A DNA stretch of 64,000 bases from a virus. Taxonomy: Duplodnaviria > Caudoviricetes. Below are positions 16,236 through 39,662 of this stretch, one piece after another. The position numbers were made by a program, and so were the translations under genes. Each line of letters begins with the position of its first letter. The stretch's first letter is position 1. The notes below the pieces were generated by a model, which saw only the letters and a list, made by a program, of their open reading frames with translations, was not told the DNA's origin and did no database searches. Location: the IMG/VR virus record IMGVR_UViG_3300008450_000030, positions 2,208 to 66,207 of that record. One strand, given 5' to 3'.

Positions 16236-16264
16236 TTGAATTGTACCCTATTTTGCGATATAAT
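16236..16264 (+). promoter_or_regulatory. Sigma70 promoter for the first early gene
   Basis: TTGAAT-17 nt-TATAAT. Confidence 0.75.
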
Positions 16265-16343
16265 AGCGGCATGGCATCGGAATCGTTGTCATCCGGTTAG
16301 GCGGTCCCCCTAACATTGTTAGAGTAATTAGAAGGGTTTCATC

Positions 16344-16973
16344 ATGTCTCAAGTTCAAGTAATCCGCGCAGATGCTGCGCCCGAGTTGGCCCCTCTCCGC
16401 GCTGCTATCGCAGACGCTGCCGCTACTGTCTACGGGGCCAAGATTCGGTACGCCGAATCGTTGAATCTTTCGTTCGGCGTGACTCTCGAAGCACTCGAAG
16501 TCAAGTCGGCGGATGGTTCGATAATTGATCTGCGCCCGTCTGTCACGGGTTGGTTTGATGTCGAACATGGTTCGACGGCCCCTGATGCTAAGCCCATCTT
16601 GACCGAGAAGGAGGCTTTGTATAACGTGCTCAAGGGTTCAAAGCACTCGAACCCGTCGAAAGTCTGGGCAGATATCCGAAAGTATGGTCGCGCAGATGCG
16701 ATGAAACAGGCAGAGGGCATCTGTCTGGCCGGAATCAAAGCGCAGTCCATTGTCATGCCAGAGGGCACAACACGGCCTGACCCGTTGGCGGCAGATGCTA
16801 AGGGCGCGAACGACTCGAAGTCAATCCGTCTGCGAATGATGGATGATCTGAAAGTGCTCTACAAAGCAGCGAAGCGCGAGAAGTCGCTGAGCACGGAGGA
16901 GGCAAACTGTCTGGTGCATATCAGTAGCGCGCTGATTGCACTCGGCGTTGATCTGTCAACCCTCACGAAGTAA
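16344..16973 (+). CDS. Hypothetical early protein (monocistronic)
   Basis: 209 aa with its own promoter and terminator; no family recognised. Confidence 0.8.
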   Translation: MSQVQVIRADAAPELAPLRAAIADAAATVYGAKIRYAESLNLSFGVTLEALEVKSADGSIIDLRPSVTGWFDVEHGSTAPDAKPILTEKEALYNVLKGSKHSNPSKVWADIRKYGRADAMKQAEGICLAGIKAQSIVMPEGTTRPDPLAADAKGANDSKSIRLRMMDDLKVLYKAAKREKSLSTEEANCLVHISSALIALGVDLSTLTK

Positions 16974-17040
16974 TCTAGCAAGACGGGACCGCCTAACATT
17001 GTTAGGCGGTTTCCCCCTAAACCCTCTCCCGCTAGCCTCA

Positions 17041-17066
17041 AGCCCGCCACTCGGCGGGCTTTTTTT
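17041..17066 (+). terminator. Rho-independent terminator
   Basis: AGCCCGCC-ACTC-GGCGGGCT followed by a T run. Confidence 0.9.
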
Positions 17067-17123
17067 CGTCCGTCATTTTGCTTCACGGCCTAACAATGTT
17101 AGGCCATCGTCGGCCCGCTTCGC

Positions 17124-17395
17124 GGACCAGTTCTCTGTGCGGGGGTAGGGGCAAGCATGGCGTCTAGGCGCGTTACGTTTCCGCAGCGGCTAACAATGTT
17201 AGGCCGCGCTGGACCAGTTCTCTGTGCGGGGGTAGGGGCAAGGCGGCGTTACGTTTTTGCCTGTGGTAGGGGATACCCTAGTTTTCGATCACTATCTGTA
17301 GTTTGTTACGTTTTTCAGAGCCAGATGAGAATGATTCTCACAGTAGGCCCAGAAACGTAACGCCACCGCTGGACCAGTTCTCTGCGCGGGGGTAG
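17124..17395 (+). repeat. Three direct repeats GGACCAGTTCTCTGYGCGGGGGTAG
   Basis: Copies at 17124, 17211 and 17371; the first two extend identically through GGGCAAG. Confidence 0.9.
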
Positions 17396-17740
17396 TGCCT
17401 AACAATGTTATGTTTTTGGGCGTTATGTTACGTTTTTGGCGTCGTTGTTACGCCACACTTTTCGCTAAGTCCTTGTCAGCAAAGGGATGTTACGTTGTTA
17501 CGTTTTTGGCGAAAATGTATGGAAGTCCACCAAGCCGGAAAAAAGCATAACGGACAGCAAGCGCAATTCGCACTACACGTTCAATTTTCTGGCGCCATTC
17601 ATATATTTTCTAAAAAACGTAACAACGTAACATACCCCATTTTTCGTCTCTAAGTCATTGATTTATATGGCGATGTTGCGTTACGTTTTCCGTTACGTTT
17701 TCATTTCCCCCTCGTAACATCAGAACGCGCCAAACGTAAC
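17172..17740. other. Putative replication origin: GTTACG iterons, 21-bp inverted repeat, IHF site
   Basis: 14 GTTACG/CGTAAC hexamers; perfect inverted repeat 17487-17507 / 17613-17633; IHF consensus match at 17651-17663. Confidence 0.6.
17326..17340. promoter_or_regulatory. Fur-box-like 7-1-7 palindrome
   Basis: TGAGAAT-G-ATTCTCA versus the Fur consensus TGATAATnATTATCA. Confidence 0.5.
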
Positions 17741-17804
17741 GCGACCCCCCTCTTGCTCCCGCTCTTGCTTCCGCCCCAACTTTACTCTGCGTAGTATAGT
17801 TTGC

Positions 17805-17833
17805 TTGACATTCATACCTTTTTGTGTTATACT
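17805..17833 (+). promoter_or_regulatory. Strong sigma70 early promoter
   Basis: TTGACA-17 nt-TATACT with extended -10 TG. Confidence 0.9.
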
Positions 17834-17909
17834 TTAGGTTGAGTGGGAATTTCTCCTACTCGCGGCAACTACCCCTAACAAAGTTAGGTGTACATCAGAA
17901 AGGTTAGCG

Positions 17910-18149
17910 ATGAGCAGCAGATCAGGAAACAACCCAGACCTAGACTGGGGCGAGTGCGGGCTGTGTGGAGATGACGTATCAAGCGAGAGGCTTCGGCTTG
18001 GGTACGTACTGTGCCTATGCTGCGGTGAGCAAGCAGCAGTCGAGGCCCGCAGTTCATGGTGCGTTGTGCCCATGAACAAGAGCAACTACATCCTAGTCAC
18101 CGACCTAACTTTGTTAGCCCAACTCAACCCAAAGAGGACCACACCATGA
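17910..18149 (+). CDS. DksA/TraR-like C4 zinc-finger protein
   Basis: CGLCGDDVSSERLRLGYVLCLCCGE. Confidence 0.65.
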   Translation: MSSRSGNNPDLDWGECGLCGDDVSSERLRLGYVLCLCCGEQAAVEARSSWCVVPMNKSNYILVTDLTLLAQLNPKRTTP

Positions 18150-18313
18150 ACACCCGCGAAGTAACCAACCAACTCCTGCGATGGATGGATGATGGCTTGA
18201 TTTCCCCCAAAGCCCTAGCCGAAGCCTGTCTCAAGTACATGAGCGAATCCGATGTCGCAGACATGGCGCATTGCAACGAACTCATCTGCAACGATGAGGA
18301 GGAACAAGAATGA
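18146..18313 (+). CDS. Small hypothetical early protein
   Basis: ATG at 18146 overlaps the upstream TGA; GAGG RBS; reads MNTREVTNQLL...CLKYMSESDVADM. Confidence 0.7.
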   Translation: MNTREVTNQLLRWMDDGLISPKALAEACLKYMSESDVADMAHCNELICNDEEEQE

Positions 18314-18537
18314 ACACCCGATTCGCAAACAAGTATGAGAAGGCTCTCATGTTGTGCCTTACTGCTAAGTTAGCAGGTGAAGTGCTCAACTACGACGTAA
18401 CCAAGGACAGCCGTGGCTATCGCTACATCATGGCCGAAACCGATAGCGGGTGGAGCGAGTGGTTCAACGAGGCGATGGAAGATGAGTTCAGCGATGAGTA
18501 CCGCGACTCATGGATGCACAGGGGGTGTGATGCGTAA
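18310..18537 (+). CDS. Small hypothetical early protein
   Basis: 75 aa; ATGA overlap; GAGGAGG RBS. Confidence 0.7.
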   Translation: MNTRFANKYEKALMLCLTAKLAGEVLNYDVTKDSRGYRYIMAETDSGWSEWFNEAMEDEFSDEYRDSWMHRGCDA

Positions 18538-18631
18538 CTCAGACTCTACGGGCACGTGGCTGCTCGCCATCGTCTATTGGGCCGCAGCCATCGTGCTGCT
18601 ACTTGACCTTTTCTATTGGAGGCCGTTGTGA
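18530..18631 (+). CDS. Small membrane peptide (33 aa)
   Basis: MRNSDSTGTWLLAIVYWAAAIVLLLDLFYWRPL; one TM helix. Confidence 0.55.
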   Translation: MRNSDSTGTWLLAIVYWAAAIVLLLDLFYWRPL

Positions 18632-18915
18632 TATTCGTAGACCTGAAGAAATTCAAGAGCCCTTCGCTCATCAGCCCCGTGTTCCACCAGCCTAACTTTG
18701 TTATGCGGGACCATAAGCACAGGGACGCTCTGCTCCGACTCATAGAGTTGGAGGTTGGTGTGCAGCAGATGGGGCAGTACATCCTGCAGTTGATGCGTAA
18801 CCCCGAGGCAACGGACGAGCAGATCACGACTGTCCGTACCATGTACGTTGACATCTACAAGAAGTTTTCCGAGGCACAGGATGCCGTGTTCAAGTACAAA
18901 GGAGAAACGAAGTGA
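18628..18915 (+). CDS. Hypothetical early protein
   Basis: GTG start after GGAGG, overlapping the upstream TGA. Confidence 0.6.
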   Translation: MIFVDLKKFKSPSLISPVFHQPNFVMRDHKHRDALLRLIELEVGVQQMGQYILQLMRNPEATDEQITTVRTMYVDIYKKFSEAQDAVFKYKGETK

Positions 18916-19091
18916 CCAAGAAGAAAACCTTCTGGGTGCAGATGGTCAAGACCATTCACGTGCCTATCGTCGCCGCAGATGAGGATGCTGCTTCTAACGC
19001 AGCCAAAGAGAACGATGTGGCCGGAGGCAACGCGCTGAAGTGGGCTGTTGCCGACGCTATTGTGTATGACGTAAACCAAGAGGGGGCATGA
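18912..19091 (+). CDS. Small hypothetical protein (59 aa, not in track)
   Basis: GTG start after AAGGAG; reads MTKKKTFWVQMVKTIHVPIVAADED... Confidence 0.6.
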   Translation: MTKKKTFWVQMVKTIHVPIVAADEDAASNAAKENDVAGGNALKWAVADAIVYDVNQEGA

Positions 19092-19092
19092 G

Positions 19093-19206
19093 ATGCACGG
19101 ACTTATGCAAGATGGCATCGAGGATCGGGAGACACGTAGGCTTTCTATGTGGTTCGCTACCCGCTTGGGCGACTTCCGAGAGTGGCAACCAAAAAGGGAG
19201 GCCTAA
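19093..19206 (+). CDS. Small hypothetical protein (37 aa)
   Basis: MHGLMQDGIEDRETRRLSMWFATRLGDFREWQPKREA; its stop TAA lies inside the palindrome at 19203. Confidence 0.5.
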   Translation: MHGLMQDGIEDRETRRLSMWFATRLGDFREWQPKREA

Positions 19207-19208
19207 CA

Positions 19209-19367
19209 ATGTTAGCCTTTCACGTTGAAGGCAGGAGTCGAGGCGGGGACTTGTCCATCGCCGAGATCATTGAGTCACGCACCGCTAGAGGTGCGCGTCA
19301 ACAGTTCGCTGCTCTCTACCCCACGCTTAGGGGTATCAGGGTATACCGACTGCAGACTATTAACTAA
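19209..19367 (+). CDS. Small hypothetical protein
   Basis: ATG inside the palindrome, after a GGGAGG RBS. Confidence 0.55.
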   Translation: MLAFHVEGRSRGGDLSIAEIIESRTARGARQQFAALYPTLRGIRVYRLQTIN

Positions 19368-19398
19368 TCAACTAACCAACCTATCAGGAGAAACGATC

Positions 19399-20553
19399 AT
19401 GTGGGGAAACAACGGAATGAACAGCACCATGCGGGCACTCCCGTATGTGCGCGAGTACTCACTCGCAAAGCGCATCCTTGACTCGACCACCCCCGTGCGC
19501 GGGAGTGGGGTGAACGCTGGCATCAAGCCATTGGGGGCACGTAACAATGTTACGGCGTACTCGGTGCGGGCGGGTACTGTTGACGCTACGGACGTAGAGT
19601 TTATGCTCTACAAAACACCCGTCATTACGTTCAAGAAAGACGGGCGCATCCTCGTAAGGATGGAGCGGTGGAACACGAACACCACCCGTGAATTCATAAA
19701 CTCTATCCTCAACGTGTCCTGCTACGCCAAGAGTGGCAAGAGCGTGATGGAACTACACGGAGGCGGTGGTTTGTCCGTCATCCCGCCGACTGGATTGGTG
19801 CTGCGCTACGATGTAGATGCAACACCTCCACGCCTTGTCTTCGACGCCAAACCCAAGTTCACGGGCTATGCGGTCAGCCGAGCGAAGGCTAACAAAGTTA
19901 GGGCGCAGTTCTCTGAGTTCGCCAAGTACTTCAAGGGGTGTGTGAATCTGCGCTCCGTCGAGATGATCGAGAAGTCGTACTACGGAGGAGGGCACACGAA
20001 GTACAACGCCATCGAGTACACGGGCGCTGAGATCGCCGAGGTTCTCGGTGATGAGGATGAGAGTACCGCTGTGGTGGCGAACCCTTGGACTGAGTGGGAA
20101 TTGCTCAAGCACAGGCCCTTCCACCAATTCCGTCCGATGGGGTACAACACGTACGCCAACTGGATCGCCGAGTACAACGCCAAGTGTGCGGAGTTCTTAG
20201 ACCTCATCAAGAATGACCAGCCCGACGACACGAAGACACAGAACTTCTACAAGGCTATGGTCATCTGCATGATCCTCAACGGGAAAAAGCCCAACAAGGA
20301 AACTCCCCACGTAGTTGTTCGTAACCTCACCACCATCGTGGTCGAGAACTTCGAGACTATCTGGAAGATGTACTTCGCTAAGGATATTCTGGAAGAAGTA
20401 GTGCTCAAGGATGGGGTCACACCCAATCAGACCTACACCAACTGGATGTGGATGTATGACCAAGTGAAGGTAGCCGAGGCCGAGGCGCAAGAGCGCAAGT
20501 ACAAGGGCGAACTGCCGTTCAACCCCGGCGAGAGCGTCCAGTACTTTGCTTGA
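19399..20553 (+). CDS. Hypothetical early protein (about 384 aa)
   Basis: Start reassigned to the ATG at 19399 after ATCAGGAG. Confidence 0.8.
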   Translation: MWGNNGMNSTMRALPYVREYSLAKRILDSTTPVRGSGVNAGIKPLGARNNVTAYSVRAGTVDATDVEFMLYKTPVITFKKDGRILVRMERWNTNTTREFINSILNVSCYAKSGKSVMELHGGGGLSVIPPTGLVLRYDVDATPPRLVFDAKPKFTGYAVSRAKANKVRAQFSEFAKYFKGCVNLRSVEMIEKSYYGGGHTKYNAIEYTGAEIAEVLGDEDESTAVVANPWTEWELLKHRPFHQFRPMGYNTYANWIAEYNAKCAEFLDLIKNDQPDDTKTQNFYKAMVICMILNGKKPNKETPHVVVRNLTTIVVENFETIWKMYFAKDILEEVVLKDGVTPNQTYTNWMWMYDQVKVAEAEAQERKYKGELPFNPGESVQYFA

Positions 20554-20579
20554 ACTTTACTTTCCGTAGTAAAGTTTGC

Positions 20580-20608
20580 TTGACATTCACACCTTATTGT
20601 GTTATACT
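20580..20608 (+). promoter_or_regulatory. Strong sigma70 early promoter (near-copy of the 17805 promoter)
   Basis: TTGACA-17 nt-TATACT within about 70 bp nearly identical to 17778-17850. Confidence 0.9.
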
Positions 20609-20728
20609 TTAGGTTGAATGGGATTTCGTGTGTTAGTTGTTAGTTGTTAGTCGTTAGTCCGCGCCCTACCCCTAACAAAGTTAGGCGGGCATCATTAGTG
20701 TTCATTAGTGTTTATCAGGAGTTAGAAA

Positions 20729-21796
20729 ATGGCTGAGATCAAGTTCGGTAAGACTGTCACCCTCAAGCAAGCCGCACGGCTCATCTTCACCAACCCAGAG
20801 GTTCGGTTCCTTGTTCGCGGCGAACCAGGAATTGGGAAGTCCTCGCTGTTGGAGGACGTTGCTGCTCAGGCTGGTTGCGAGTATGCCTATATCGACGTAC
20901 CAAACATGGATTTGGGTGACATCGCGATGCCCGTGATAGATCACGTGGAGAAGGTCACTCGCTATTACCCTAACGCTAGGTTCGGACTTCACACGGGTCG
21001 CCCGATGGCGATCATGTTGGACGAGTTCAGCAAGGGCATGGATGCGGTCAAAAACATGTTGCATCCCATGTTGGAAAAGAAGAACCCGCGACTGGCCGAC
21101 AAGCCAATCGTTAAGGGTACTTACGTATTCCTGACTGGCAACCTGTCTTCGGACGGGGTGGGCGATGTGGTCAAGTCTCACTCGCAGAACCGCATCGTTG
21201 AGATCGTGGTGCAGAAACCTACAGCGGAGGAGTGGATCGAGTGGGCGATCCAGAAGGGGACCATCGAGCCTGAGATTATTGCGTGGGTCAATCAGTACCC
21301 CCACGCTCTTGCTTCGTACACGGATGCCGCACAAGCGGACAACCCGTACATCTACCACCCACGGCGTACCCAGAATGGGTTCGTCACCCCGCGCTCACTC
21401 GAAACGGCATCTAACATTGTTAGCACCCGTGGGTTGAACGACACCGACGCTGTTATCGCCGCTCTGATTGGTGCTTTGGGTGAGAGCGCAGCGCGTGACG
21501 TTCAGGCGTACATCGAGTTCAGCGATCAACTCCCATCGTGGGACGCGATGATTAAGAACCCTAAGACTACGACTGTACCGACTAGCCCTGCTGCCTGCGC
21601 CATTGTGGTGTTCGGTGCTATCGCACGTATGACCAAGGAGACTATCGCTCCGTTCATGGAGTACCTCGAACGCTTCGATGCCGAGTGGCAAGCAGTCTTT
21701 GCGATCAACATCGCCAAGGCTACGGCTAAGCAGAGCATCGCCTTCTCTAGTAAGGCGTTCGCCGAGTGGGTCGCTAAGAATCAGGACCTGTTGTGA
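20729..21796 (+). CDS. MoxR/dynein-related AAA+ ATPase
   Basis: Walker A GEPGIGKS, Walker B IMLDE, sensor TGN, TPRS motif. Confidence 0.9.
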   Translation: MAEIKFGKTVTLKQAARLIFTNPEVRFLVRGEPGIGKSSLLEDVAAQAGCEYAYIDVPNMDLGDIAMPVIDHVEKVTRYYPNARFGLHTGRPMAIMLDEFSKGMDAVKNMLHPMLEKKNPRLADKPIVKGTYVFLTGNLSSDGVGDVVKSHSQNRIVEIVVQKPTAEEWIEWAIQKGTIEPEIIAWVNQYPHALASYTDAAQADNPYIYHPRRTQNGFVTPRSLETASNIVSTRGLNDTDAVIAALIGALGESAARDVQAYIEFSDQLPSWDAMIKNPKTTTVPTSPAACAIVVFGAIARMTKETIAPFMEYLERFDAEWQAVFAINIAKATAKQSIAFSSKAFAEWVAKNQDLL

Positions 21797-21981
21797 AAGT
21801 TTTCTGGCGGTACAACATGACGCCAAATAATTGGCGTGATGGAGATACACCCTTCATGGTAGAAGTATGCCGTGTTACGGGTAAGGGCGAATACGGAATC
21901 GAGGTAATTGCTGAGATTCCGTATGAAGAGTTGAGCATTGCCAAGGTAATGATTGAGTTAGCAAACAACGAGGAGTCCTAA
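21793..21981 (+). CDS. Small hypothetical protein
   Basis: 62 aa between the ATPase and VWA genes. Confidence 0.6.
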   Translation: MKVFWRYNMTPNNWRDGDTPFMVEVCRVTGKGEYGIEVIAEIPYEELSIAKVMIELANNEES

Positions 21982-21983
21982 CA

Positions 21984-23243
21984 ATGTTAGAAGAACGCAA
22001 ATTGCAGAAGGCCAAGATCAGCCTGATGCGTAACCCACGGTTCGCGCTGTGGTCTGGCATCCTGATGGTGGGTAAGACCTCCATTGTGGATAACGTAGCA
22101 ACAGCATCGACAAACGGACGCGACGAGGTGTATGGTCGCGGGTTCGTCAAGGAACTTTCCGACAAGGAGTTGTGCTTCCTTGTACTGCACGAGTCCTTGC
22201 ACAAGGCTCTTCGTCATCTCACTACGTGGAAGAAACTCCACGATGAGAACCACAAGTTGGCGAACGCTGCCTGTGACTACGTGATTAACCTCATGCTGAT
22301 CGAACTCGACCCGAACGGCGAAACCATCGTCATGCCTAAGATCAAGGATGGTCCGCTGAAGGGTCAGCCGATGGGTCTGATCGACGCTCGGTTCAAGGGG
22401 ATGAACGCCAAGCAGGTGTTCGACATTCTCAAGCAGGAGCAGAAGGAAGGTGGCGACGAGGGTGACGAGCCCATCGACGGAAGCGGGCGTGTTCCCAGCA
22501 AAGGCGACGGCAATGGCGACCCGAAGGGGGGCGCAGGGTTGGACGAGCACGACTGGGATGGTGCTGCCGAGATGACTGCCGACGAGCGCAAGCAGTTGGA
22601 GCGTGAAGTCGATCAGGCTATTAGGCAAGGGCTAATGGCTGAGAAGAAGGTAGGCAAGGGTGGCGGTGGGATGGGCCGCGAGTTGATGGACCTGATGGAG
22701 CCGAAGATCAACTGGCGCGATGCGTTGCGCGAGTTCGTCAAGGCTACGTGCAACGCCAAGGATACGTCCTCTTGGCGTAAGGTGAACCGCCGCTACTTGG
22801 CCGACGATGTGTATATGCCCTCGCTGGTTGGCGAGAAGGTTAGGCATATCGTTGTAGGCATTGACACCTCAGGCTCCATCGGTGACAAGGAGTTGGCCGA
22901 AGCATTGGCCGAGGTCAAGGCTATCTCCGAGGAAGTCAACCCTGATGTGGTGGACTTGATCTACTGGGACGGTGGCGTTGCTGCCCATGAAATCTACGAG
23001 GGCGCTGATGTATCTAACATTGTTAGTTCCACCAAGCCGAAAGGTGGTGGGGGTACTTCGCCATCTTGTGTGTCTACTTACCTCAAGAATAAGCACATCG
23101 TTCCAGAGTGCGTTCTCATGCTCACAGATGGATACGTGGGTAGCGATTGGGGTACGGGATGGACGGCTCCTGTGCTCTGGGTCGTCTTTGGTGGCAATAC
23201 TGTTGTCGCGCCTAACGGCAAGACAATTCATGTTCGGGATTAA
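21984..23243 (+). CDS. Metallopeptidase-like + VWA protein (DUF2201 type)
   Basis: HESLH, ANAACDYVIN, MIDAS DTSGS, GGGT, LTDG. Confidence 0.88.
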   Translation: MLEERKLQKAKISLMRNPRFALWSGILMVGKTSIVDNVATASTNGRDEVYGRGFVKELSDKELCFLVLHESLHKALRHLTTWKKLHDENHKLANAACDYVINLMLIELDPNGETIVMPKIKDGPLKGQPMGLIDARFKGMNAKQVFDILKQEQKEGGDEGDEPIDGSGRVPSKGDGNGDPKGGAGLDEHDWDGAAEMTADERKQLEREVDQAIRQGLMAEKKVGKGGGGMGRELMDLMEPKINWRDALREFVKATCNAKDTSSWRKVNRRYLADDVYMPSLVGEKVRHIVVGIDTSGSIGDKELAEALAEVKAISEEVNPDVVDLIYWDGGVAAHEIYEGADVSNIVSSTKPKGGGGTSPSCVSTYLKNKHIVPECVLMLTDGYVGSDWGTGWTAPVLWVVFGGNTVVAPNGKTIHVRD

Positions 23244-23253
23244 GGAGAGAGAA

Positions 23254-23475
23254 GTGGTAGTGCTTTCGTTTGGATACGGGGACTACGTAGTTTCCCCGAA
23301 GGATGCAGTCACCATCATGGAGATACTGCAGAAATCAGAACGCTATGAGTGCAAGTACGTGAGCGGGGGGGACAACACCCATCACGTGTACTCATCGGGC
23401 GAGAGTCTCACCGCTAAGTTGATTAGCGATGATATGTACCGCATGGCGAAGTTGGCTGGCAAGCCAGATCGGTAA
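23254..23475 (+). CDS. Small hypothetical protein
   Basis: GTG start after TAAGGAG; ends LISDDMYRMAKLAGKP. Confidence 0.7.
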   Translation: MVVLSFGYGDYVVSPKDAVTIMEILQKSERYECKYVSGGDNTHHVYSSGESLTAKLISDDMYRMAKLAGKPDR

Positions 23476-23533
23476 CACCACGGGCGCACGATAACAACAC
23501 CCTTGTTATCGTGCCTAACAATGTTAGCAACCA

Positions 23534-23685
23534 AGTCGAGGGGGAACATAAGGCAACGCTTGCAAGCCTAGCAGATGCGAACAAGCGATGTTGGAACCGT
23601 TGGTCCCTCGACTGCTGGAAGTGTATCCAACGGTTCCCCTTTCATACATTGAACAGGGGCGGCAATGAATCTGCTTTTCCGCCCC
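23534..23685 (+). ncRNA. Putative doubly pseudoknotted structured RNA
   Basis: Five complementary segments, including two long-range pseudoknot pairings (see findings). Strand assumed from the flanking genes. Confidence 0.65.
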
Positions 23686-23768
23686 ACTATTTCTTAGGAC
23701 CAGTTCCCCAAGTTCCCCAACCCGCCTAACAAAGTTAGGTATCACATTTCAATCATCAGGAGAAACGT

Positions 23769-24632
23769 ATGAGTATTAGCGCATCAGCAGTATTAGTGGA
23801 GTTGAACATCTCTGTGTGGCCCGCATCAAAGATTGATCGGGAGACTACAGACCGAGTTAACTTCGACGCATCAGCCGTGTCGAACGCATCGCAAACCAAG
23901 AAGAACCTTTTCGCTGGCACGGGTCTGCGTAAGGACATCGAGAAGTTCGCCGCTCGTGTCCGTCTGTACCACAACCTCAACACGTTGCCGTGGGCAGACA
24001 AGGGTGAGCGACTCGCGCCGACCAAGATTTTCATGGAGTACAAGACGGCGATGAACGCCTTCGAGTCTCAGTTCGGTGCTATGTGCAACAACTTCTACGC
24101 GGAGTACCCGCGTCTGGTTGCGGAAGCACCCACAAACCTCGGCAAGTTGTTCAAGGCTGAGGACTACCCACCCCTTGATGAGGTGCGGTGCAAGTTCGGG
24201 TTCCGTCGCTCGACTAACCCCCTGTCGGATGCTGGCGACTTCCGCCTAGACATACCAGCGCAGGACTTGGTAGAGATTCAGGCGGCGTACGAAAAGCAGT
24301 TCGAGGAGCGGCTCGCCGACGCGATGAAGGCTCCGTGGGATCGACTGCACAAGATGTTGACGGGCATCAGCGAGAAGTTGACCGACGACACGGCTGAGGA
24401 TAGCGACGTACCCAAGAAGCGGTACTACGACTCCCTCATCACCAACCCGCTTGAGTTGTGCGAGTTGTTGACCAAACTCAACGTGACCAACGATCCAAAG
24501 TTGGAGGAGGCACGGCGTCAACTTGAGGTAACAATGTTAGGTGCAGATATCGAGAGGATCAAGGAGGATGCAGATGTACGTAGCAACGTGAAGTCCAAGG
24601 TCGATGCGATCCTTAGCAAGTTCGAGTGGTAA
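23769..24632 (+). CDS. DUF3150-like phage protein
   Basis: SAVLVELNISVW...TLPWADKGERL...LNVTNDPKLEEAR. Confidence 0.65.
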   Translation: MSISASAVLVELNISVWPASKIDRETTDRVNFDASAVSNASQTKKNLFAGTGLRKDIEKFAARVRLYHNLNTLPWADKGERLAPTKIFMEYKTAMNAFESQFGAMCNNFYAEYPRLVAEAPTNLGKLFKAEDYPPLDEVRCKFGFRRSTNPLSDAGDFRLDIPAQDLVEIQAAYEKQFEERLADAMKAPWDRLHKMLTGISEKLTDDTAEDSDVPKKRYYDSLITNPLELCELLTKLNVTNDPKLEEARRQLEVTMLGADIERIKEDADVRSNVKSKVDAILSKFEW

Positions 24633-24657
24633 TCAACAATCATCAGGAGTAACGAAA

Positions 24658-25533
24658 ATGATACTAGGACTTACGAACACCAACGTGCGCTTCAGCACGA
24701 AACTCGCCGAGAAAGCCGCTCAACGAGAGAAGGACGGGCAGGAGCCTATGCTTTGTGGCGACATGCTCAAGAAGGTCATAACTAAGTTAGCCACAGACAA
24801 ACCTCTGTGGGACTTCATTGCTTTCAAGACGAACAACTCACGCGATGTGATCGAGTTCGCGGTGTTGGGGGCGAACGCCGAGAGGCTCGGTGAGATCGGC
24901 TTTGACTGGCATGGTAGGAACTACTGCATCTACGTCAAGAACAAGCGTATTTCGGACAAGTTGACCCGAAACGACAGGTACAAGACTATGGACATAGACA
25001 AAGCGGTACTCAAGGTGAAGAAGATGTTCGGGTCTATGAGTACCAACGAACGCATAGCCCAAGAGACTTCCAAAGCCTCGGTGCTAACCGACAAGGTGCG
25101 AAACGCTAAGTGGGCACAGATACGTGATGTCGAGGCCAAGATCGAACGTGTTGCTCATCAATACATCATGGAGGAGGGGTACGAGACTTTCCTTGCTTGG
25201 CTGAAGGAACATCCAAGCCAGAAGGCTAAGGACACTTTGGAAGGGATAGATAACAAAGTTAGGCTTGGCGTCGAGATGTTGACCATCGAGAAGGTTCGGA
25301 ATCATTTCAACGAAGGCAAGGCTGTGCTGGTCATCAAAGACGGCTCGAAATATATTGTCAAAGTGGGTGACAAAGTGGACCTTTACGACGATACTTCGCT
25401 TCCCCAAGAAATGCGGGGGAAGTTAGGGATGCTGAAATTGGTGGAGGCCGAGCAATTCTTGACCGACATCGGTTGCCGCATCAACGACGAGACTTTTGTT
25501 CTCATTCTTGAGGAGGTGCAGCATGAGAGTTGA
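24658..25533 (+). CDS. Hypothetical protein
   Basis: Start reassigned to the ATG at 24658 after ATCAGGAG; ends LPQEMRGKLGMLKLV...IGCR. Confidence 0.8.
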   Translation: MILGLTNTNVRFSTKLAEKAAQREKDGQEPMLCGDMLKKVITKLATDKPLWDFIAFKTNNSRDVIEFAVLGANAERLGEIGFDWHGRNYCIYVKNKRISDKLTRNDRYKTMDIDKAVLKVKKMFGSMSTNERIAQETSKASVLTDKVRNAKWAQIRDVEAKIERVAHQYIMEEGYETFLAWLKEHPSQKAKDTLEGIDNKVRLGVEMLTIEKVRNHFNEGKAVLVIKDGSKYIVKVGDKVDLYDDTSLPQEMRGKLGMLKLVEAEQFLTDIGCRINDETFVLILEEVQHES

Positions 25534-25681
25534 ACTACTGAAAACATCGCGTCGGTTGTGGCAACCGATGGACTACATCCCTGCGGACCTGACTCGCAAG
25601 AATCAGTTGAAGTGGGCACAGGCCGTGCAGAAACTTGGAGACAAGTGGCTGCTAGCGCAGGGTGTGCAGAGGAAGGAATGA
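25523..25681 (+). CDS. Small hypothetical protein
   Basis: RKNQLKWAQAVQKLGDKWLLA; GGAGG RBS. Confidence 0.65.
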   Translation: MRVELLKTSRRLWQPMDYIPADLTRKNQLKWAQAVQKLGDKWLLAQGVQRKE

Positions 25682-25870
25682 GTGAAGACGACTACAGCAG
25701 GTTTTCCATGCCCCCAGTGTGGGACATGGACGAGAGTTCTGGAAACCCGAAACGGCAACATACGGAGAAGGGTGTGCGTGAACTCACACCGTTTCTCTAC
25801 CGAGGAGAAAGTCCTTGGCCCTTCAAATACAGTATCACCACAGGAGAAGTTAGATGACGACAGGAATTGA
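25682..25870 (+). CDS. NrdR-N-like zinc-ribbon protein
   Basis: CPQCG...VLETR...RRRVC...HRFSTEE. Confidence 0.75.
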   Translation: MKTTTAGFPCPQCGTWTRVLETRNGNIRRRVCVNSHRFSTEEKVLGPSNTVSPQEKLDDDRN

Positions 25871-26102
25871 AAACTTAAAGTTGCCCGTAGTTAAGAAGGG
25901 TCGCGGCCCCGGCAAGAAGCCAGCCTTGATCTGCACTAGCCTACGGCTGTCGAGAGAAGTAATGGACTACTACAAGCAGTTCGAGAACCAGCAAGTGAAG
26001 ATGCGGCAAGTCCTGACGGACTACTGCCTGAACGAGCAAGCCCTAACAAAGTTAGGCTTTAACAACGTAACCATTAGCGAAGGAGAAGAGCATGTTGGCT
26101 AA
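25854..26102 (+). CDS. BrnA-antitoxin-like ribbon-helix-helix DNA-binding protein
   Basis: GRGPGKKP...TSLRLSREVMDYYK...MRQVL. Confidence 0.6.
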   Translation: MTTGIENLKLPVVKKGRGPGKKPALICTSLRLSREVMDYYKQFENQQVKMRQVLTDYCLNEQALTKLGFNNVTISEGEEHVG

Positions 26103-26571
26103 AGAAAAGAAAGATGAAGTTCGGGCGTTCCTAAAGGAGAGTCCGCATATCAGTTTGCAGAACGTAGCGTTGCTGTATGACGTTACGTATGCGCAGGTAT
26201 ACGCACTCAACCGTGAAGTCCACGGCGTTAAGCCGAGGGCCAAGAAGGCTGCGAAGAAGCCAGCGGTCAAGGCCAAGGCAAAGATGGGCCGCAAGGCTAT
26301 TCTTGCGAAGGCGGCGGATCAGTATCCCATGCCGCTGCTCCCCCCTGCGCCAGTAATGGTTTACGGGCCTGACATGGTGAACCAGCCACCGCACTACACG
26401 TATGGCGGCATCGAGACTATCGACTTCATCGAGGCCAAGGACTTGAACTACAACTTGGGCAATGTGGTTAAGTACGTAACCCGTAGCGGACTCAAGGGTA
26501 CGCGCATCGAAGACCTCAAGAAAGCCAAGTGGTACTTGGAGCGCGAGATCGGTTCGCTGCTCGGCGACTAA
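26092..26571 (+). CDS. DUF3310 (SaV-like) domain protein
   Basis: DMVNQPPHY..GGIETIDFI...GNVVKY..R...EDLKKAKWYL. Confidence 0.85.
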   Translation: MLAKEKKDEVRAFLKESPHISLQNVALLYDVTYAQVYALNREVHGVKPRAKKAAKKPAVKAKAKMGRKAILAKAADQYPMPLLPPAPVMVYGPDMVNQPPHYTYGGIETIDFIEAKDLNYNLGNVVKYVTRSGLKGTRIEDLKKAKWYLEREIGSLLGD

Positions 26572-26597
26572 CAAAGTTAGGGTTTCCTCTCCCACTA

Positions 26598-26621
26598 AGC
26601 CACCTTCGGGTGGCTTTTTTT
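26598..26621 (+). terminator. Rho-independent terminator
   Basis: AGCCACC-TTCG-GGTGGCT followed by a T run. Confidence 0.9.
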
Positions 26622-26625
26622 CGTC

Positions 26626-26653
26626 TTGACTTTGTAAAGGGTTGTGCTACGAT
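26626..26653 (+). promoter_or_regulatory. Promoter for the replication operon
   Basis: TTGACT-16 nt-TACGAT with extended TG. Confidence 0.6.
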
Positions 26654-26681
26654 CATGGCTTGAAAACTACTGGAGGATGAG

Positions 26682-27008
26682 ATGCCCGCAACACCTGAGG
26701 CCAAGGTCAAGGCCAAGATCAAAGCCATTCTCAAGGCACACAACGCCTACTACGTTATGCCCATAGGTACGGGCTACGGCAATTCAGGCGTCCCCGACTT
26801 CATCTGCTGCGTCAATGGTCAGTTCCTCGCTATCGAGGCTAAGGCTGGCAAGGGCAAGCCGACTGCATTGCAGGACAAGAACATCCGAGACATACGCACC
26901 GCTGGCGGCTACGCTATGGTGGTCAACGAAGACAACCTCGAAGAACTCGAAACGCTGATCGCTAACTATGTTAGGTGGGGTGAGAGTTATCAAGATCGGC
27001 ACGTATGA
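26682..27008 (+). CDS. VRR-NUC domain nuclease (Holliday-junction resolvase-like)
   Basis: TPEAKVK...GVPD...AIEAK...PTALQ. Confidence 0.9.
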   Translation: MPATPEAKVKAKIKAILKAHNAYYVMPIGTGYGNSGVPDFICCVNGQFLAIEAKAGKGKPTALQDKNIRDIRTAGGYAMVVNEDNLEELETLIANYVRWGESYQDRHV

Positions 27009-28816
27009 TTCTGACAATCGACTTCGAGACTTTCTACTCGCAGGAGTTCAGCCTAACAAAGTTAACCACGGAGGAGTACATCCGCTCTTCCGAGTTCGAG
27101 GTTATCGGTGTTGCAGTACAGGTAGACGATGGGGAGCCCGAGTGGTTCAGCGGCGATGCTTTGAAGACCCATGCGTTCCTGAGCAAATTCGACTGGGGTA
27201 ACTCCACAGCGGTAGCGCACAACGCTGTGTTCGACGGGGCTATCCTTAATTGGTTGTACGGTATACGCCCTAAGGGGTGGGTGGACACCCTCAGCATGGC
27301 ACGTGCTCTGCACGGTACTGAAGTAGGCGGTAGTCTCAAGGTGCTAGCCGAGCACTACAAGATAGGCGTGAAGGGCACGGAGGTAGTCGATGCCATTGGG
27401 CTGAGGCGTGAGCAGTTCGGTGCTGAGCAACTAGCGCAGTATGGCGAGTACTGCAAGAACGATGTGGCCCTGACTTGGAAGTTGTACAAGGCGATGGGTG
27501 ACTTCCCCGCAGTTGAGTTGAGCCTGATTGATATCACGCTGCGGATGTTCACCGAGCCCGTACTGCAGTTGGACAGGATGGCATTATCCGCGCACCTTAT
27601 CCGTATAAAGGCGCACAAAGTCCAACTCCTTGGCGAGTTCGACAAAGACACGCTGATGAGCAACCCCAAGTTTGCCGGGGCCCTAACAGAGTTAGGGGTC
27701 ACTCCTCCTATGAAGGTTAGCCCAGCGAACGGCAAGCAGACCTATGCCTTCTCTAAGTCCGACGAAGAGTTCACGGCACTACTTGAGCACGACAATCTGA
27801 GGGTGCAAGCCCTTGTCGCTGCACGGCTAGGTACTAAGTCCACCCTCGAAGAGACACGAACCGAGCGGCTGATAGGGACCGCCGAGCGAGGCCCTTTGCC
27901 AGTTCCCCTCCGGTACTACGCTGCCCATACTGGGCGATGGGGTGGCGACGACAAGTTGAACCTCCAGAACCTCCCACGGGGTTCGCTGCTCAAGAAGTGC
28001 ATCATCGCGCCAATGGGCTACTACGTCCTTGACTCAGACTCTTCCCAGATTGAAGCGCGTACGCTGGCATGGCTAGCGGGGCAGACTGATCTAGTCGAAG
28101 CGTTTGATCGGGGCGAGGATGTGTACCGCATTATGGCTGCTCGCATATACACCAAGGCCGAAGCAGACATCACGAAGGAAGAACGCTTTGTGGGTAAGAC
28201 AACCATCCTTGGCGCAGGGTACGGGATGGGTGCGGCTAGGTTCCAAACGCAACTCAAGACGTTCGGCGTAACCATTGAGTTGGATGAGTGCCAGCGGATC
28301 ATCGACACGTACCGCACAACGTACGGCAGTATAAAAAAGTTATGGGCCGAGGCGGGTAAGGCTATAGATGCCATCATGGAAGACAAGCACACCACACTAG
28401 GAGTGAACGGAGTGCTGAACGTAGACGGCAAGAAGGGCATCCTTCTGCCTAACGGCCTACGCCTAAAGTACCCCAATCTACGCAACCATCAGGACGACGA
28501 TGGGGATACTGAAACTGTGTACGACACGAGGAAAGGGAAAGCCACTATCCTCACGCGCATTTATGGGGGTAAGGTCGTAGAGAACGTGTGCCAAGCACTC
28601 GCTCGAATTATCATTGGCGACCAGATGCTCATCGTCAATAAGAAGTACCGTGTTGTGATGACTGTGCATGATGCCATTGCGTGTGTAGTGCCAGAGGAAG
28701 AGATACATACGGCCAAAGAGTACATCGAAATGTGTATGAGATTACGCCCATCGTGGGCGCTGGATTTACCACTAAATTGTGAGGCTGGATATGGAGAAAG
28801 TTACGGCGATTGTTGA
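27005..28816 (+). CDS. polA: Family A DNA polymerase with 3'-5' exonuclease
   Basis: Exo DFET and HNAVFD; motif A DSSQIEAR; motif B KTTILGAGYG; motif C VHDA. Confidence 0.95.
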   Translation: MILTIDFETFYSQEFSLTKLTTEEYIRSSEFEVIGVAVQVDDGEPEWFSGDALKTHAFLSKFDWGNSTAVAHNAVFDGAILNWLYGIRPKGWVDTLSMARALHGTEVGGSLKVLAEHYKIGVKGTEVVDAIGLRREQFGAEQLAQYGEYCKNDVALTWKLYKAMGDFPAVELSLIDITLRMFTEPVLQLDRMALSAHLIRIKAHKVQLLGEFDKDTLMSNPKFAGALTELGVTPPMKVSPANGKQTYAFSKSDEEFTALLEHDNLRVQALVAARLGTKSTLEETRTERLIGTAERGPLPVPLRYYAAHTGRWGGDDKLNLQNLPRGSLLKKCIIAPMGYYVLDSDSSQIEARTLAWLAGQTDLVEAFDRGEDVYRIMAARIYTKAEADITKEERFVGKTTILGAGYGMGAARFQTQLKTFGVTIELDECQRIIDTYRTTYGSIKKLWAEAGKAIDAIMEDKHTTLGVNGVLNVDGKKGILLPNGLRLKYPNLRNHQDDDGDTETVYDTRKGKATILTRIYGGKVVENVCQALARIIIGDQMLIVNKKYRVVMTVHDAIACVVPEEEIHTAKEYIEMCMRLRPSWALDLPLNCEAGYGESYGDC

Positions 28817-28994
28817 CTACGCTTACCCCTGCATGATGGCAGAGAAGGGTTTACGTAAAGTGCATGACGCGATGTTGAACAATGATTTTGATACCGCTAT
28901 AGAGGCTGCTATACAAACGCTAGTAGATACGAAGTTGATGGTCAATGCGATCAAAGACATGAAAGACATGAATGAGAAATTGAGGTCGGTATGA
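28791..28994 (+). CDS. Small hypothetical protein
   Basis: IVDYAYPCMMAEKGL...; fills the gap between polA and the nuclease gene. Confidence 0.65.
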   Translation: MEKVTAIVDYAYPCMMAEKGLRKVHDAMLNNDFDTAIEAAIQTLVDTKLMVNAIKDMKDMNEKLRSV

Positions 28995-29656
28995 AGCCAA
29001 TCATCTGGTCGTTCAGTAGTCTGAAGACATTCCAGCAGTGCCCCAAAAAGTACTACCACACCAAGGTAGCGAAGGACATTGTTGAACCTGATACGGTAGC
29101 AACCTTATACGGGAAGTCTGCCCATACCGCCGCAGAAGACTTCATTCGGGAGGGCAAACCAATCGAGCCCAAGTTCGATTACATGAAGTCCACGCTAGAT
29201 GAGTTGGCAAAGATTCCCGGCGAGAAGTTGGTCGAGGTCAAGTTAGGGCTAACGAAAGACTTGAAAGCCTGTGACTTCAACGCCCCAGACGTATGGTGGC
29301 ACGGCATCGCCGACTTGGTTGTGCTGGACCATGAACGGCAGTTGGCCTACTCGGTGGACTACAAGACCAGCAAGAGCGCACGGTATGCGGACGTTAAGCA
29401 GTTGGACCTTGTGGCGGTGGGTATCTTCGCCAAGTTCCCTAACATTGTTAGAGTGAAGTCTGCTTTGATATTTGTAGTGAGCAAAGAGTTTGTTAGGGCT
29501 GAGCACCATGTAAATATGATTCACAAGTACATGGAGAAGCCAGCGCAAGATGTGGCGCGGATCGAGCAAGCGTATGAGTCGGGTGTTTGGAATCCAGTCC
29601 AAGGCCCGTTGTGTAAGTTCTGCTCTGTTTCCTCGTGTATGTATAACCGCAACTAG
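28991..29656 (+). CDS. PD-(D/E)XK exonuclease, Cas4/RecB-like with Fe-S cysteines
   Basis: WSFSSL...CPKKY, GIAD, VDYKT, QL, CKFC..C. Confidence 0.9.
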   Translation: MKPIIWSFSSLKTFQQCPKKYYHTKVAKDIVEPDTVATLYGKSAHTAAEDFIREGKPIEPKFDYMKSTLDELAKIPGEKLVEVKLGLTKDLKACDFNAPDVWWHGIADLVVLDHERQLAYSVDYKTSKSARYADVKQLDLVAVGIFAKFPNIVRVKSALIFVVSKEFVRAEHHVNMIHKYMEKPAQDVARIEQAYESGVWNPVQGPLCKFCSVSSCMYNRN

Positions 29657-29665
29657 GAGAAGCGG

Positions 29666-29848
29666 ATGATTCCAACGGATATGTGTAGTGGGTCGTGCCA
29701 AGGCAAGAGAGAAAACTGCCCTGCGCCACAAGCGTGTGGGTGGCCTGACCCAGAGGGTGAGGATAAGGGGTTTCTAGACGCAGTTGTGTTCGTATTAGCG
29801 GTGTTGAGTTTAGTTGTACTTTGTTTTGGAGTAATGATATGGCTTTGA
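29666..29848 (+). CDS. Small Cys-rich membrane protein
   Basis: CSGSCQG..CPAPQAC plus a C-terminal TM helix. Confidence 0.65.
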   Translation: MIPTDMCSGSCQGKRENCPAPQACGWPDPEGEDKGFLDAVVFVLAVLSLVVLCFGVMIWL

Positions 29849-30030
29849 TTTGGCGGTGTGCTGCACAGGCAGCGAAAGACTCTATGCGTAACCGTGTACC
29901 TATTCAGGAAATCCTAAAGGCCACGGGGGCTGGGTGGGAGATACCCAACAATATGCAGCCACCCGAGGATGCAACTGCTAAGGAATTAGCGTTGTGGGTA
30001 CGCGAGGTTGCTAGGCCATGCGCTTCTTAA
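29839..30030 (+). CDS. Small hypothetical protein
   Basis: Starts MALIWRCAAQAA after a GGAG RBS. Confidence 0.55.
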   Translation: MALIWRCAAQAAKDSMRNRVPIQEILKATGAGWEIPNNMQPPEDATAKELALWVREVARPCAS

Positions 30031-30194
30031 TCTTAGCGTTGTCTTCGGTGCTTTGGCTGTATGCGTGTTCGCAGCCGCCTGAAATAGTACCCGAGGACGA
30101 TGAGAACGACATCTATCGTTGCTATCTCAACAAGGACGGCACGTTACTCATCTGCCCCGAGAAGACAAAGCCAACGAGGATGGCGCGTGATTAG
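30018..30194 (+). CDS. Small putative lipoprotein (58 aa, not in track)
   Basis: MRFLILALSSVLWLYA-CSQPPE has a signal peptide II lipobox; GAGG RBS. Confidence 0.55.
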   Translation: MRFLILALSSVLWLYACSQPPEIVPEDDENDIYRCYLNKDGTLLICPEKTKPTRMARD

Positions 30195-30378
30195 CTGGGA
30201 GAAGGCACTGGAGATAACAAAGTTATTGGAGGTAGTCAAAGAAGACTGCCGCCGAGAGTCTTTGGCGATGCTGCTCAAAGCCGAGGGGTTTCAACTGCCA
30301 CGGGCTGTACCTACAGATACGCTGCATGACTTACATAAACTTGCCGAGTTCATCAGGCTGCACTCAAGGATACTTTAA
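30187..30378 (+). CDS. Small hypothetical protein
   Basis: GTG start after GAGGA, in the frame of track ORF 30100-30378. Confidence 0.5.
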   Translation: MISWEKALEITKLLEVVKEDCRRESLAMLLKAEGFQLPRAVPTDTLHDLHKLAEFIRLHSRIL

Positions 30379-34980: not shown

Positions 34981-35011
34981 AGACCTCCCGTAACAAAGTT
35001 AGGAGATTAGG

Positions 35012-39634: not shown

Positions 39635-39662
39635 AGCCCCGCCCTAGAGCGGGGCTTTTTTT
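39635..39662 (+). terminator. Terminator at the convergence of the two arms
   Basis: AGCCCCGC-CCTAGA-GCGGGGCT followed by a T run. Confidence 0.85.

Follow-up and report, generated by a model that had tools for sequence, protein, structure and literature searches.

A candidate pseudoknotted RNA in a lineage-specific, non-coding insert between genome-wide palindromes of a tailed phage

What kind of element is the self-complementary stretch at positions 23534-23685, in the gap between a 73-codon gene and a DUF3150-like gene of an uncultured freshwater tailed phage (Caudoviricetes; IMG/VR virus record IMGVR_UViG_3300008450_000030)? The window analysed here is a stretch of 64,000 nucleotides (nt), bases 2208-66207 of the 66,207-bp virus record, in which direct terminal repeats are present; all coordinates refer to the window. 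An earlier note, made from the letters without database searches, had read the stretch, called the core below, as a non-coding RNA with two long-range pseudoknots, enclosed by two palindromes and serving as a ribozyme, riboswitch or protein-binding RNA upstream of the DUF3150-like gene. In our analysis the core carries complementary segments far in excess of chance, lies in a non-coding insert confined to one lineage, and matches no known RNA family. Its transcript may fold as a pseudoknotted RNA, and we regard it as a statistically solid, evolutionarily isolated candidate and not as a discovery.

The gap between the stop codon (23475) and the next ATG (23769) measures 293 bp, in line with the ~290 bp reported before, and is built from the following parts (L and G numbers denote relatives that are compared further below).

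23486-97 / 23503-14, plus strand: 12-bp hairpin with the loop CACCC, right after the stop codon, common to L002/L003 and L020
23515-23527, no strand: palindrome 1, CTAACAATGTTAG, a TAAC-N3-GTTA copy; left edge of the insert, with the G002 alignment interrupted at 23514
23534-23542, plus strand: 5' strand of long-range pairing 1, AGTCGAGGG, 9 nt, complementary to 23605-13
23541-23547, plus strand: GGGGAAC, with alternative partners GTTCCCC at 23633, 23703 and 23712; competitor of pairing 1
23545-49/23588-92 and 23557-62/23582-87, plus strand: hairpin 1, a bulged stem of 5 + 6 bp; 19-nt loop with AGCAGAT at 23570-76
23593-603 / 23627-37, plus strand: hairpin 2, a perfect 11-bp stem; 23-nt loop whose bases 23605-13, CCCTCGACT, pair with 23534-42
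23656-62 / 23679-85, plus strand: hairpin 3, a 7-bp G+C stem; 16-nt loop with ATCTGCT at 23669-75
23702-23719, plus strand: tandem AGTTCCCCA, two copies, in a C-rich tail; holds the GTTCCCC copies at 23703 and 23712
23725-23739 (13 bp: 23726-38), no strand: palindrome 2, CCTAACAAAGTTAGG, a TAAC-N3-GTTA copy; right edge of the insert

All stems and both long-range complementarities described earlier were confirmed, from the letters as well as from the inverted-repeat list, while the possible pairing of GGGGAAC with GTTCCCC had been missed. The interleaved self-complementarity of the core is far above chance. Five perfect inverted repeats of at least 7 nt, with a summed length of 41, are found within 23534-23685, compared to means of 0.51 repeats and 3.7 nt in 2000 dinucleotide shuffles of the core, none of which (0/2000) reached either observed value. 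Across the 64 kb, a summed length of 41 is reached by 2 of 2554 segments of 152 nt, both in the non-coding region at 16.9-17.7 kb. When the three hairpins were held fixed and the 94 unpaired letters were shuffled 5000 times, a complement of at least 9 nt arose with P = 0.0026, and one of at least 9 nt together with another of at least 7 nt with P = 0.0002 (1/5000). These two long-range complements are the 9-nt pairing, with its arms 62 nt apart, and a 7-nt pairing of loop 1 (23570-76) with loop 3 (23669-75), with its arms 92 nt apart. The 9-bp helix (23534-42/23605-13) crosses the 11-bp stem (23593-603/23627-37), leaving a junction of 1 nt (23604) and loops of 50 and 13 nt. Judged by complementarity and geometry only, this is the layout of an H-type pseudoknot, namely two helices in the order a-b-a'-b' that are separated by 0-1 nt, and loops of sufficient length to cross the grooves.

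The gap is non-coding. Two frames are open across the insert, 23511-23729 on the plus strand (72 codons) and 23524-23745 on the minus strand (73 codons), and for both no homologue was found among 5.8 billion proteins and no match in Pfam. The sole start codon of the plus-strand frame is a GTG within the 12-bp hairpin, without a Shine-Dalgarno sequence, and its end, QPA-TAA, falls inside palindrome 2, as does that of a 55-codon open reading frame (ORF) in L002/L003. In all six frames the codon-usage log-odds lie below those of every in-frame 66-codon segment of 24 long phage genes, and no small ORF in the gap combines a start codon with a Shine-Dalgarno sequence. The three marks of a small protein gene (Shine-Dalgarno start, genome-like codons, homologues) are therefore all missing from the gap. 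An extension of the upstream gene by -1 frameshift was considered and rejected, as there is no slippery heptamer.

The comparison with relatives identifies 23528-23725 as a lineage-specific insert of ~200 bp in a variable slot. The protein encoded downstream led to 33 related loci, 29 of which were compared over 330 nt upstream of the gene (L018, L019, L021 and L032 start inside it and were dropped), and the upstream 73-codon gene led to 10 loci, nine of which were compared (L062, with a score equal to that of L061, was omitted). The core is absent from all 29 of the former and all nine of the latter, and in L064 and L066-L070 only 20-62 nt separate the two flanking genes. Four states of the slot are seen among relatives: the core, a 55-codon ORF, a spacer, or nothing. 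In L002 and L003 (95% identity), the order is hairpin, palindrome, 55-codon ORF with its own Shine-Dalgarno sequence, and palindrome; in L004 (95%), there are only the stop codon, a palindrome and the gene; in L020 (89%), the hairpin is followed by a 45-nt spacer, which also contains CCAGTTCCCC of the C-rich tail. The gap in the alignment with G002 is exactly 23514-23727, with 212 nt here versus 45 nt there, and direct repeats of 15 nt flank the insert. One pair of the 12-bp hairpin is A-T here, G-C in L002/L003 and G.T in L020, which, resting on three distinct sequences, is an anecdote only.

Outside these loci, the core was searched for by alignment and by exact patterns. It is absent from five related virus records, the only match being one of 20 nt (E 0.037), and blastn of all fetched loci returned only chance matches of 19-20 nt (E 0.22-0.77); in the phage's own genome it is present in a single copy. 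The region 23300-23900, coding flanks included, has no match among GenBank phages by blastn (distant mode). As exact patterns, the 11-bp stem occurs 0 times in viral_contigs and 16 times in metagenome_contigs, always in unrelated hairpins; the 9-nt pairing occurs four times in viral_contigs, all unrelated; and hairpin 1 occurs 0 times in viral_contigs and three times, against about four expected by our own estimate, in genome_contigs (one genome per prokaryote species), none of them related. Such scans require exact letters, so diverged homologues could escape them and absence is not proven. The scan for the 11-bp stem also brought up a separate kind of structure: in the metagenome contigs L041-L046, L050, L051 and L053, there are unrelated long hairpins of the form GGTGTCA-GGAACCGTTGGCAA...TTGCCAACGGTTCC-TGACACC, flanked by repeated TGCGCA-type words; these hairpins might be an origin belonging to a different mobile element.

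Near-identical copies in contigs of public runs show that the element is genuine sequence of a circulating phage and did not arise in assembly. With the possible source run excluded, five DNA rows in three studies have at least half of the sampled words, and no RNA run is listed among the sequencing runs carrying them. Contigs were compared from four of these public DNA runs, in three studies, with X5 left out. They contain parts of the core nearly unchanged, the differences being a change of two neighbouring letters at 23654-55, within the unpaired linker, in a single contig of depth 3.1, and one letter in the loop of palindrome 2; this near-identity persists despite flanking direct repeats able to delete the insert. 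The contigs break at the hairpin and at the palindromes, which we read as assembly-graph behaviour. In run X4, the loose end of one contig at window position 23503 has the 12-bp hairpin with an inverted loop, which most likely reflects how the assembly graph behaves at a palindrome.

Whether the core could be transcribed depends on its surroundings, for which the relevant features are these.

20580-20608, plus strand: sigma-70-type promoter TTGACA-17-TATACT, 11/12; likely start of the read-through transcript
23254-23475, plus strand: 73-codon gene upstream of the gap, an open frame; its stop codon, 23473-75, opens the gap
23758-23762, plus strand: Shine-Dalgarno sequence AGGAG of the downstream gene, read from the sequence
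23769-24632, plus strand: 287-codon gene downstream of the gap, DUF3150-like via its relatives only
26597-26616, plus strand: first canonical terminator downstream of the gap, an 8-bp stem and a T run; likely operon end

These lie within a cluster of plus-strand genes at 16.3-39.4 kb, which encodes an AAA ATPase, a DUF2201 metallopeptidase/VWA protein, DUF3310, a VRR-NUC/Hjc-like nuclease, a family A DNA polymerase, an exonuclease, a helicase and a primase; the minus strand carries terminase, portal, ejection and tail proteins and a protein of 3060 residues. Consensus sigma-70 promoters are found at 17805 and 20580 (11/12 each) and at 16236 and 34953 (10/12 each), and canonical intrinsic terminators at 17040 and 26597. 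Within the gap (23476-23768) there is no promoter-like site on either strand and no terminator-like site. Because the neighbouring genes and the only promoters are all on the plus strand, the candidate RNA is tentatively placed on that strand, and we infer that transcription starting at the 20580 promoter runs on through the gap, which would belong to a polycistronic mRNA ending near 26597. The upstream 73-codon gene has no PHROG match. As for the downstream gene, the label DUF3150-like given in the earlier note fails for the window's own protein, which has no match to DUF3150 even at E up to 10, but holds through its family, since three of nine aligned homologues match DUF3150 (best E 3.3e-6); a PDB profile search using the alignment gave no match.

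The explanation that we favour, tentatively and with a probability somewhat short of even, is that of a non-coding cassette that is read through in an operon of the host RNA polymerase, folds as a pseudoknotted RNA and is an accessory element of putative function. The insert would occupy the slot between the 73-codon gene and the DUF3150-like gene in the early/replication cluster, bounded by the two 13-bp palindromes. Having no promoter or terminator of its own, it would be reached by host RNA polymerase coming from the sigma-70 promoter at 20580 and would form an untranslated stretch of the polycistronic mRNA. There, the RNA would form the three hairpins, with the 9-bp helix stacking on the 11-bp stem as an H-type pseudoknot, and the loops of hairpins 1 and 3 could kiss. 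Acting in cis, the folded structure might stand as a barrier between cistrons and so influence how stable the mRNA is or how it is processed; alternatively, it might be excised to give a small, stable, protein-binding RNA. A folded single strand is preferred because the pairings are long-range, interleaved and perfectly stacked.

Several observations weigh against this explanation. The 293-nt gap has a fold z-score of -4.13 on the plus strand and -3.47 on the minus strand, but much of this is owed to the 12-bp hairpin and the palindromes, and the 152-nt core alone reaches a modest minimum-free-energy z of -2.06 (plus) and -1.99 (minus); for the gap as for the core, the scores are similar on both strands. 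The G+C-corrected energy of 23501-23700 is ordinary, ranking 215 of 1277 among the genome's 200-nt segments on the plus strand. For the isolated core, a fold at -53.3 kcal/mol is predicted, which is not the one with three hairpins (-37.4 kcal/mol, pseudoknots not counted); the best predicted fold makes up 0.5% of the ensemble, and with four possible partners for GGGGAAC the fold is ambiguous. All pairings are perfect Watson-Crick ones, with no G-U pair that would speak for RNA over DNA or for either strand. A discrete RNA is not delimited by any promoter, terminator or processing site in the gap. The element is dispensable, since it is missing from the closest relatives, whose proteins from the neighbouring gene are 95% and 89% identical. 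Homologues of the core were found neither in viral nor in metagenome nor in prokaryote contigs by exact patterns, which leaves no covariation to be analysed, and the strains that do have the element are too alike to show selection.

The rival that survives best, though on balance rather unlikely, is a hitch-hiking remnant, that is, a fragment of foreign DNA (e.g., part of a structured RNA gene or of a regulatory region from another phage) that was recombined in at the palindromes, has no function and has not yet been deleted. This would agree with the confinement of the insert to one near-identical lineage and its absence from all relatives examined, with a slot that is a junction of insertion, deletion and replacement among these relatives, with an insert that brings no promoter, terminator or Shine-Dalgarno sequence of its own, and with its unremarkable thermodynamic stability. 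However, five interleaved perfect repeats are unlike decaying DNA and imply either a recent origin or maintenance. Phage genomes seldom retain 200 bp of useless DNA between 15-nt direct repeats, and such repeats would readily delete a useless insert. Also, no donor sequence was found by the exact-pattern scans of viral, metagenome and prokaryote contigs.

A more specific form of the RNA explanation goes further than the one that we favour and appears doubtful to us. According to it, the core would belong to a new structured RNA with a single known member, ~170-190 nt long, combining an H-type pseudoknot with a loop-loop contact, carried as a swappable cassette between operator-like palindromes, in the way of this phage group's small protein genes, and having an accessory function, for instance as a decoy or sponge for proteins, as an RNA directed against defence systems or as an RNA that processes itself. 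If this were true, non-coding RNAs would join the shuffled repertoire of phage 'morons'.

The palindromes at the two edges need to be considered separately from the core. The earlier note had them enclose the element; they do not belong to it and are two of 29 copies of a genome-wide motif, TAAC-N3-GTTA. Allowing one mismatch, CTAAC-AWW-GTTAG has 49 strand matches in the window versus 0.24 expected, and NTAAC-N3-GTTAN has 29 sites, 27 of them in 16310-30214 and the others at 34990 and 48449; two relatives have 27 and 22 motif sites in their first 20 kb. Copies sit between promoter and ribosome-binding site, right after stop codons and within ORFs. The DUF2201 gene has its start codon (ATG, 21984) in the loop of a palindrome (21978-21990), and the TAA stop codons of the DUF3310 gene (26569-71; palindrome 26568-26580) and of the small ORF of L002/L003 lie in a left arm, so that the palindromes double as translation punctuation. 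The string itself has no match in the searchable literature, and a broader keyword search brought up nothing of relevance.

Reading these palindromes as RNA hairpins was rejected, since, over three genomes, conservation does not extend to the outer pair, wobble mismatches are not favoured and neither loop orientation prevails. The unit is 13 bp long, with an A/T loop and an invariant core of 4 + 4 bases. Among the one-mismatch copies of the three genomes (n = 29), the inner TAAC/GTTA is kept in all but one, the mismatches are 10 A.G, 8 G.G, 7 C.T, 3 C.A and 1 T.G, and the loops are balanced in orientation (ATT 13, AAA 11, AAT 8, TTT 6). Because the inner core is kept, wobble bias is lacking and loop orientation is balanced, the palindromes are probably DNA sites for a dimeric protein, lying outside the candidate RNA, and the set as a whole is probably the putative recognition-site set of a phage DNA-binding regulator. 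In L066-L068, a more distant lineage (45% identity), a different palindrome, CTGACATTTGTCAG, stands at this junction, ~5-20 nt past the homologue of the 73-codon gene, with symmetric changes in both arms, which suggests that site and binding protein may co-evolve. The edges of alignment blocks with two relatives fall near palindromes in 7 of 16 cases (2.1 expected, P = 0.003) and in 9 of 26 cases (3.7 expected, P = 0.008), an enrichment to be read with the caveat that breakpoints and palindromes both favour intergenic DNA. The motif probably marks module junctions and, in a wider sense, the palindromes are generic punctuation of this phage group.

Given that the flanking palindromes behave as DNA sites, the core itself might act as DNA or single-stranded DNA, either as a control region between operator-like palindromes 211 bp apart or through replication hairpins like the loading signals of primases and primosomes. 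We consider this quite improbable. It would suit the fact that all pairings are Watson-Crick and equally good on both strands, the presence of the GGAAC/GTTCC word five times in ~180 bp, and the location in a replication module with DNA polymerase, exonuclease, helicase and primase, as well as the fact that the only comparably repeat-rich sites are in the non-coding 16.9-17.7 kb region with its ACGTAAC iterons. The arms of the repeats, however, all differ in sequence and are not iterons, their spacing of 62-92 bp would suit no dimeric protein that binds DNA, the 12 iterons at 17.2-17.7 kb already provide a candidate origin, and relatives with the same replication genes do without the element. 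The GGAAC word was also considered as a -35 element for a sigma factor and discarded, as there is no fitting -10. A mimic of a CRISPR repeat, for which only a common 8-mer would speak, was set aside too.

The region at 16974-17900 is an observation in its own right. It is a non-coding stretch of ~900 bp with 12 of the window's 22 ACGTAAC words (17172-17740, in both orientations), three copies of a ~30-nt repeat starting GGACCAGTTC (17124, 17211 and 17371), five palindromes, the terminator at 17040 and the consensus sigma-70 promoter at 17805, and it is a candidate for a replication origin or master control region.

The proposal of the earlier note, a self-cleaving ribozyme or a ligand-sensing riboswitch controlling the DUF3150-like gene, is in our view very unlikely. 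It has in its favour the non-random complementarities, a site upstream of a gene and the double-pseudoknot topology, which is frequent in small ribozymes and in some riboswitches. Nonetheless, the element belongs to no known RNA family: at gathering thresholds, Rfam 15 gives 0 matches in the whole 64 kb, and for 23300-23900 at E up to 10 it gives only the chance-level sR58 (15.1 bits versus 55, E 1.3) and p27_CRE (14.8 versus 42, E 4.2), with no family even at E = 1. This search, which had been suggested together with the proposal, bears out its remark that no hammerhead, twister or pistol core could be matched. Neither is the element a dedicated riboswitch for the downstream gene. It overlaps neither the Shine-Dalgarno sequence nor the start codon, being separated from the gene by a palindrome of the genome-wide set and 30 nt; neither signal pairs with the core when the whole gap is folded in silico, the only match to the start region is one of 9 nt at 89%, and there is no terminator in the gap to act as an expression platform. 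Conservation upstream of orthologues, as would be expected of a riboswitch, is seen at 0 of 29 and 0 of 9 loci. Because the element is absent from these 29 + 9 loci, where the two genes are often 20-62 nt apart, it is unlikely to serve the DUF3150-like gene as a riboswitch or other regulator of its own. Of the non-coding RNA with pseudoknots, what stands is thus the absence of coding, the non-chance complementarity and the H-type layout, and what lacks support is the link to that gene.

Other known classes were compared as well. No tRNA or tmRNA gene is found in the window by ARAGORN (0 genes). Hairpin 3, followed by ACTATTTCTT, is not a canonical terminator, and the test for intrinsic terminators finds none in the gap, where ACUAUUUCUU comes after hairpin 3 and a palindrome after the 12-bp hairpin. 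The RNA array of a type III toxin-antitoxin system, with tandem repeats of ~34-36 nt upstream of a toxin gene, does not correspond to what is present, the sole tandem repeat being 9 nt x 2. An N4-like virus in which the palindromes (5-bp stem, 3-nt loop) would be hairpin promoters of a virion polymerase, as such promoters are described in PMC3715699 and PMC4496689, was rejected because no giant virion RNA polymerase was matched and because consensus sigma-70 promoters precede the early genes. The 3060-residue ORF (39661-48843, minus strand) has PHROG matches only in its last ~800 residues, to DarB-like antirestriction proteins or giant proteins of unknown function, the N4 virion RNA polymerase not being among them, and a search of the window's large ORFs brought up no phage RNA polymerase.

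The weakest alternative, a small protein gene in one of the two long frames, is extremely unlikely, as the openness of both frames through the whole insert and the QPA-TAA end shared with the L002/L003 ORF are outweighed by the lone GTG in a hairpin without Shine-Dalgarno sequence, the un-phage-like codon usage in every frame, the lack of any homologue or Pfam match and the lack of a heptamer for frameshifting from the upstream gene.

We thus return to the read-through cassette with a pseudoknotted RNA. If its fold is real and functional, an accessory non-coding RNA would have taken the place of a small protein gene in a hyperplastic slot of a phage genome, and many ORF-less stretches in such slots would merit screening for RNA.

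Among known systems, the closest to the slot are the promoter-early stem-loops (PeSL) of T4-type phages, recurring regulatory motifs that lie at the borders of variable small genes and through which modules are shuffled (PMC2839356, PMC4122927). The likeness is that a short conserved motif is repeated many times in the early region and flanks small variable cassettes, and that insertion, deletion or replacement between two motif copies sets close relatives apart; the slot here is bounded in the same manner. The differences are that the motif here is a bare 13-bp palindrome, with promoters and terminators separate and at variable distance, that copies are also found inside coding sequence, that the cassette content is non-coding, and that the phage itself, with its family A DNA polymerase, virion protein of 3060 residues and 66-kb genome, is not of the T4 type. 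Because the motif lacks the composition that defines a PeSL, a sigma-70 early promoter plus a terminator stem-loop, the slot is an analogue of the PeSL cassettes and not a member of them.

For the fold, the likeness is to H-type pseudoknots in leader and intercistronic RNAs of phages, and it is one of topology only. The leader of the T4 gene 32 mRNA is an example of an H-type pseudoknotted phage leader RNA. The crossing helices, here predicted, with a 0-1-nt junction that permits coaxial stacking are common to both, as would be the position in an untranslated part of the mRNA upstream of a replication-module gene. Unlike in the gene 32 leader, the helices predicted here are of 9 and 11 bp, loop 1 contains a whole hairpin and a third hairpin could kiss; moreover, the element lies 80 nt from the ribosome-binding site and is not conserved with the downstream gene. 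With the pseudoknotted ribozymes and riboswitches of Rfam (hammerhead, twister, pistol, HDV-like, preQ1, SAM-II), it has in common a length of ~150 nt and a pseudoknotted topology, but none of their covariance models rises above noise on either strand.

For the flanking palindromes alone, the KorA and KorB sites of plasmid RK2 offer a comparison, as these are operator palindromes of 12-13 bp repeated around the replicon. Many of the copies in this phage lie inside genes, unlike the RK2 operators. The resemblance lies in the length of 13 bp, the ~25-29 copies per genome, the frequent position between promoter and gene, the invariant symmetric core and the lack of wobble-type tolerance.

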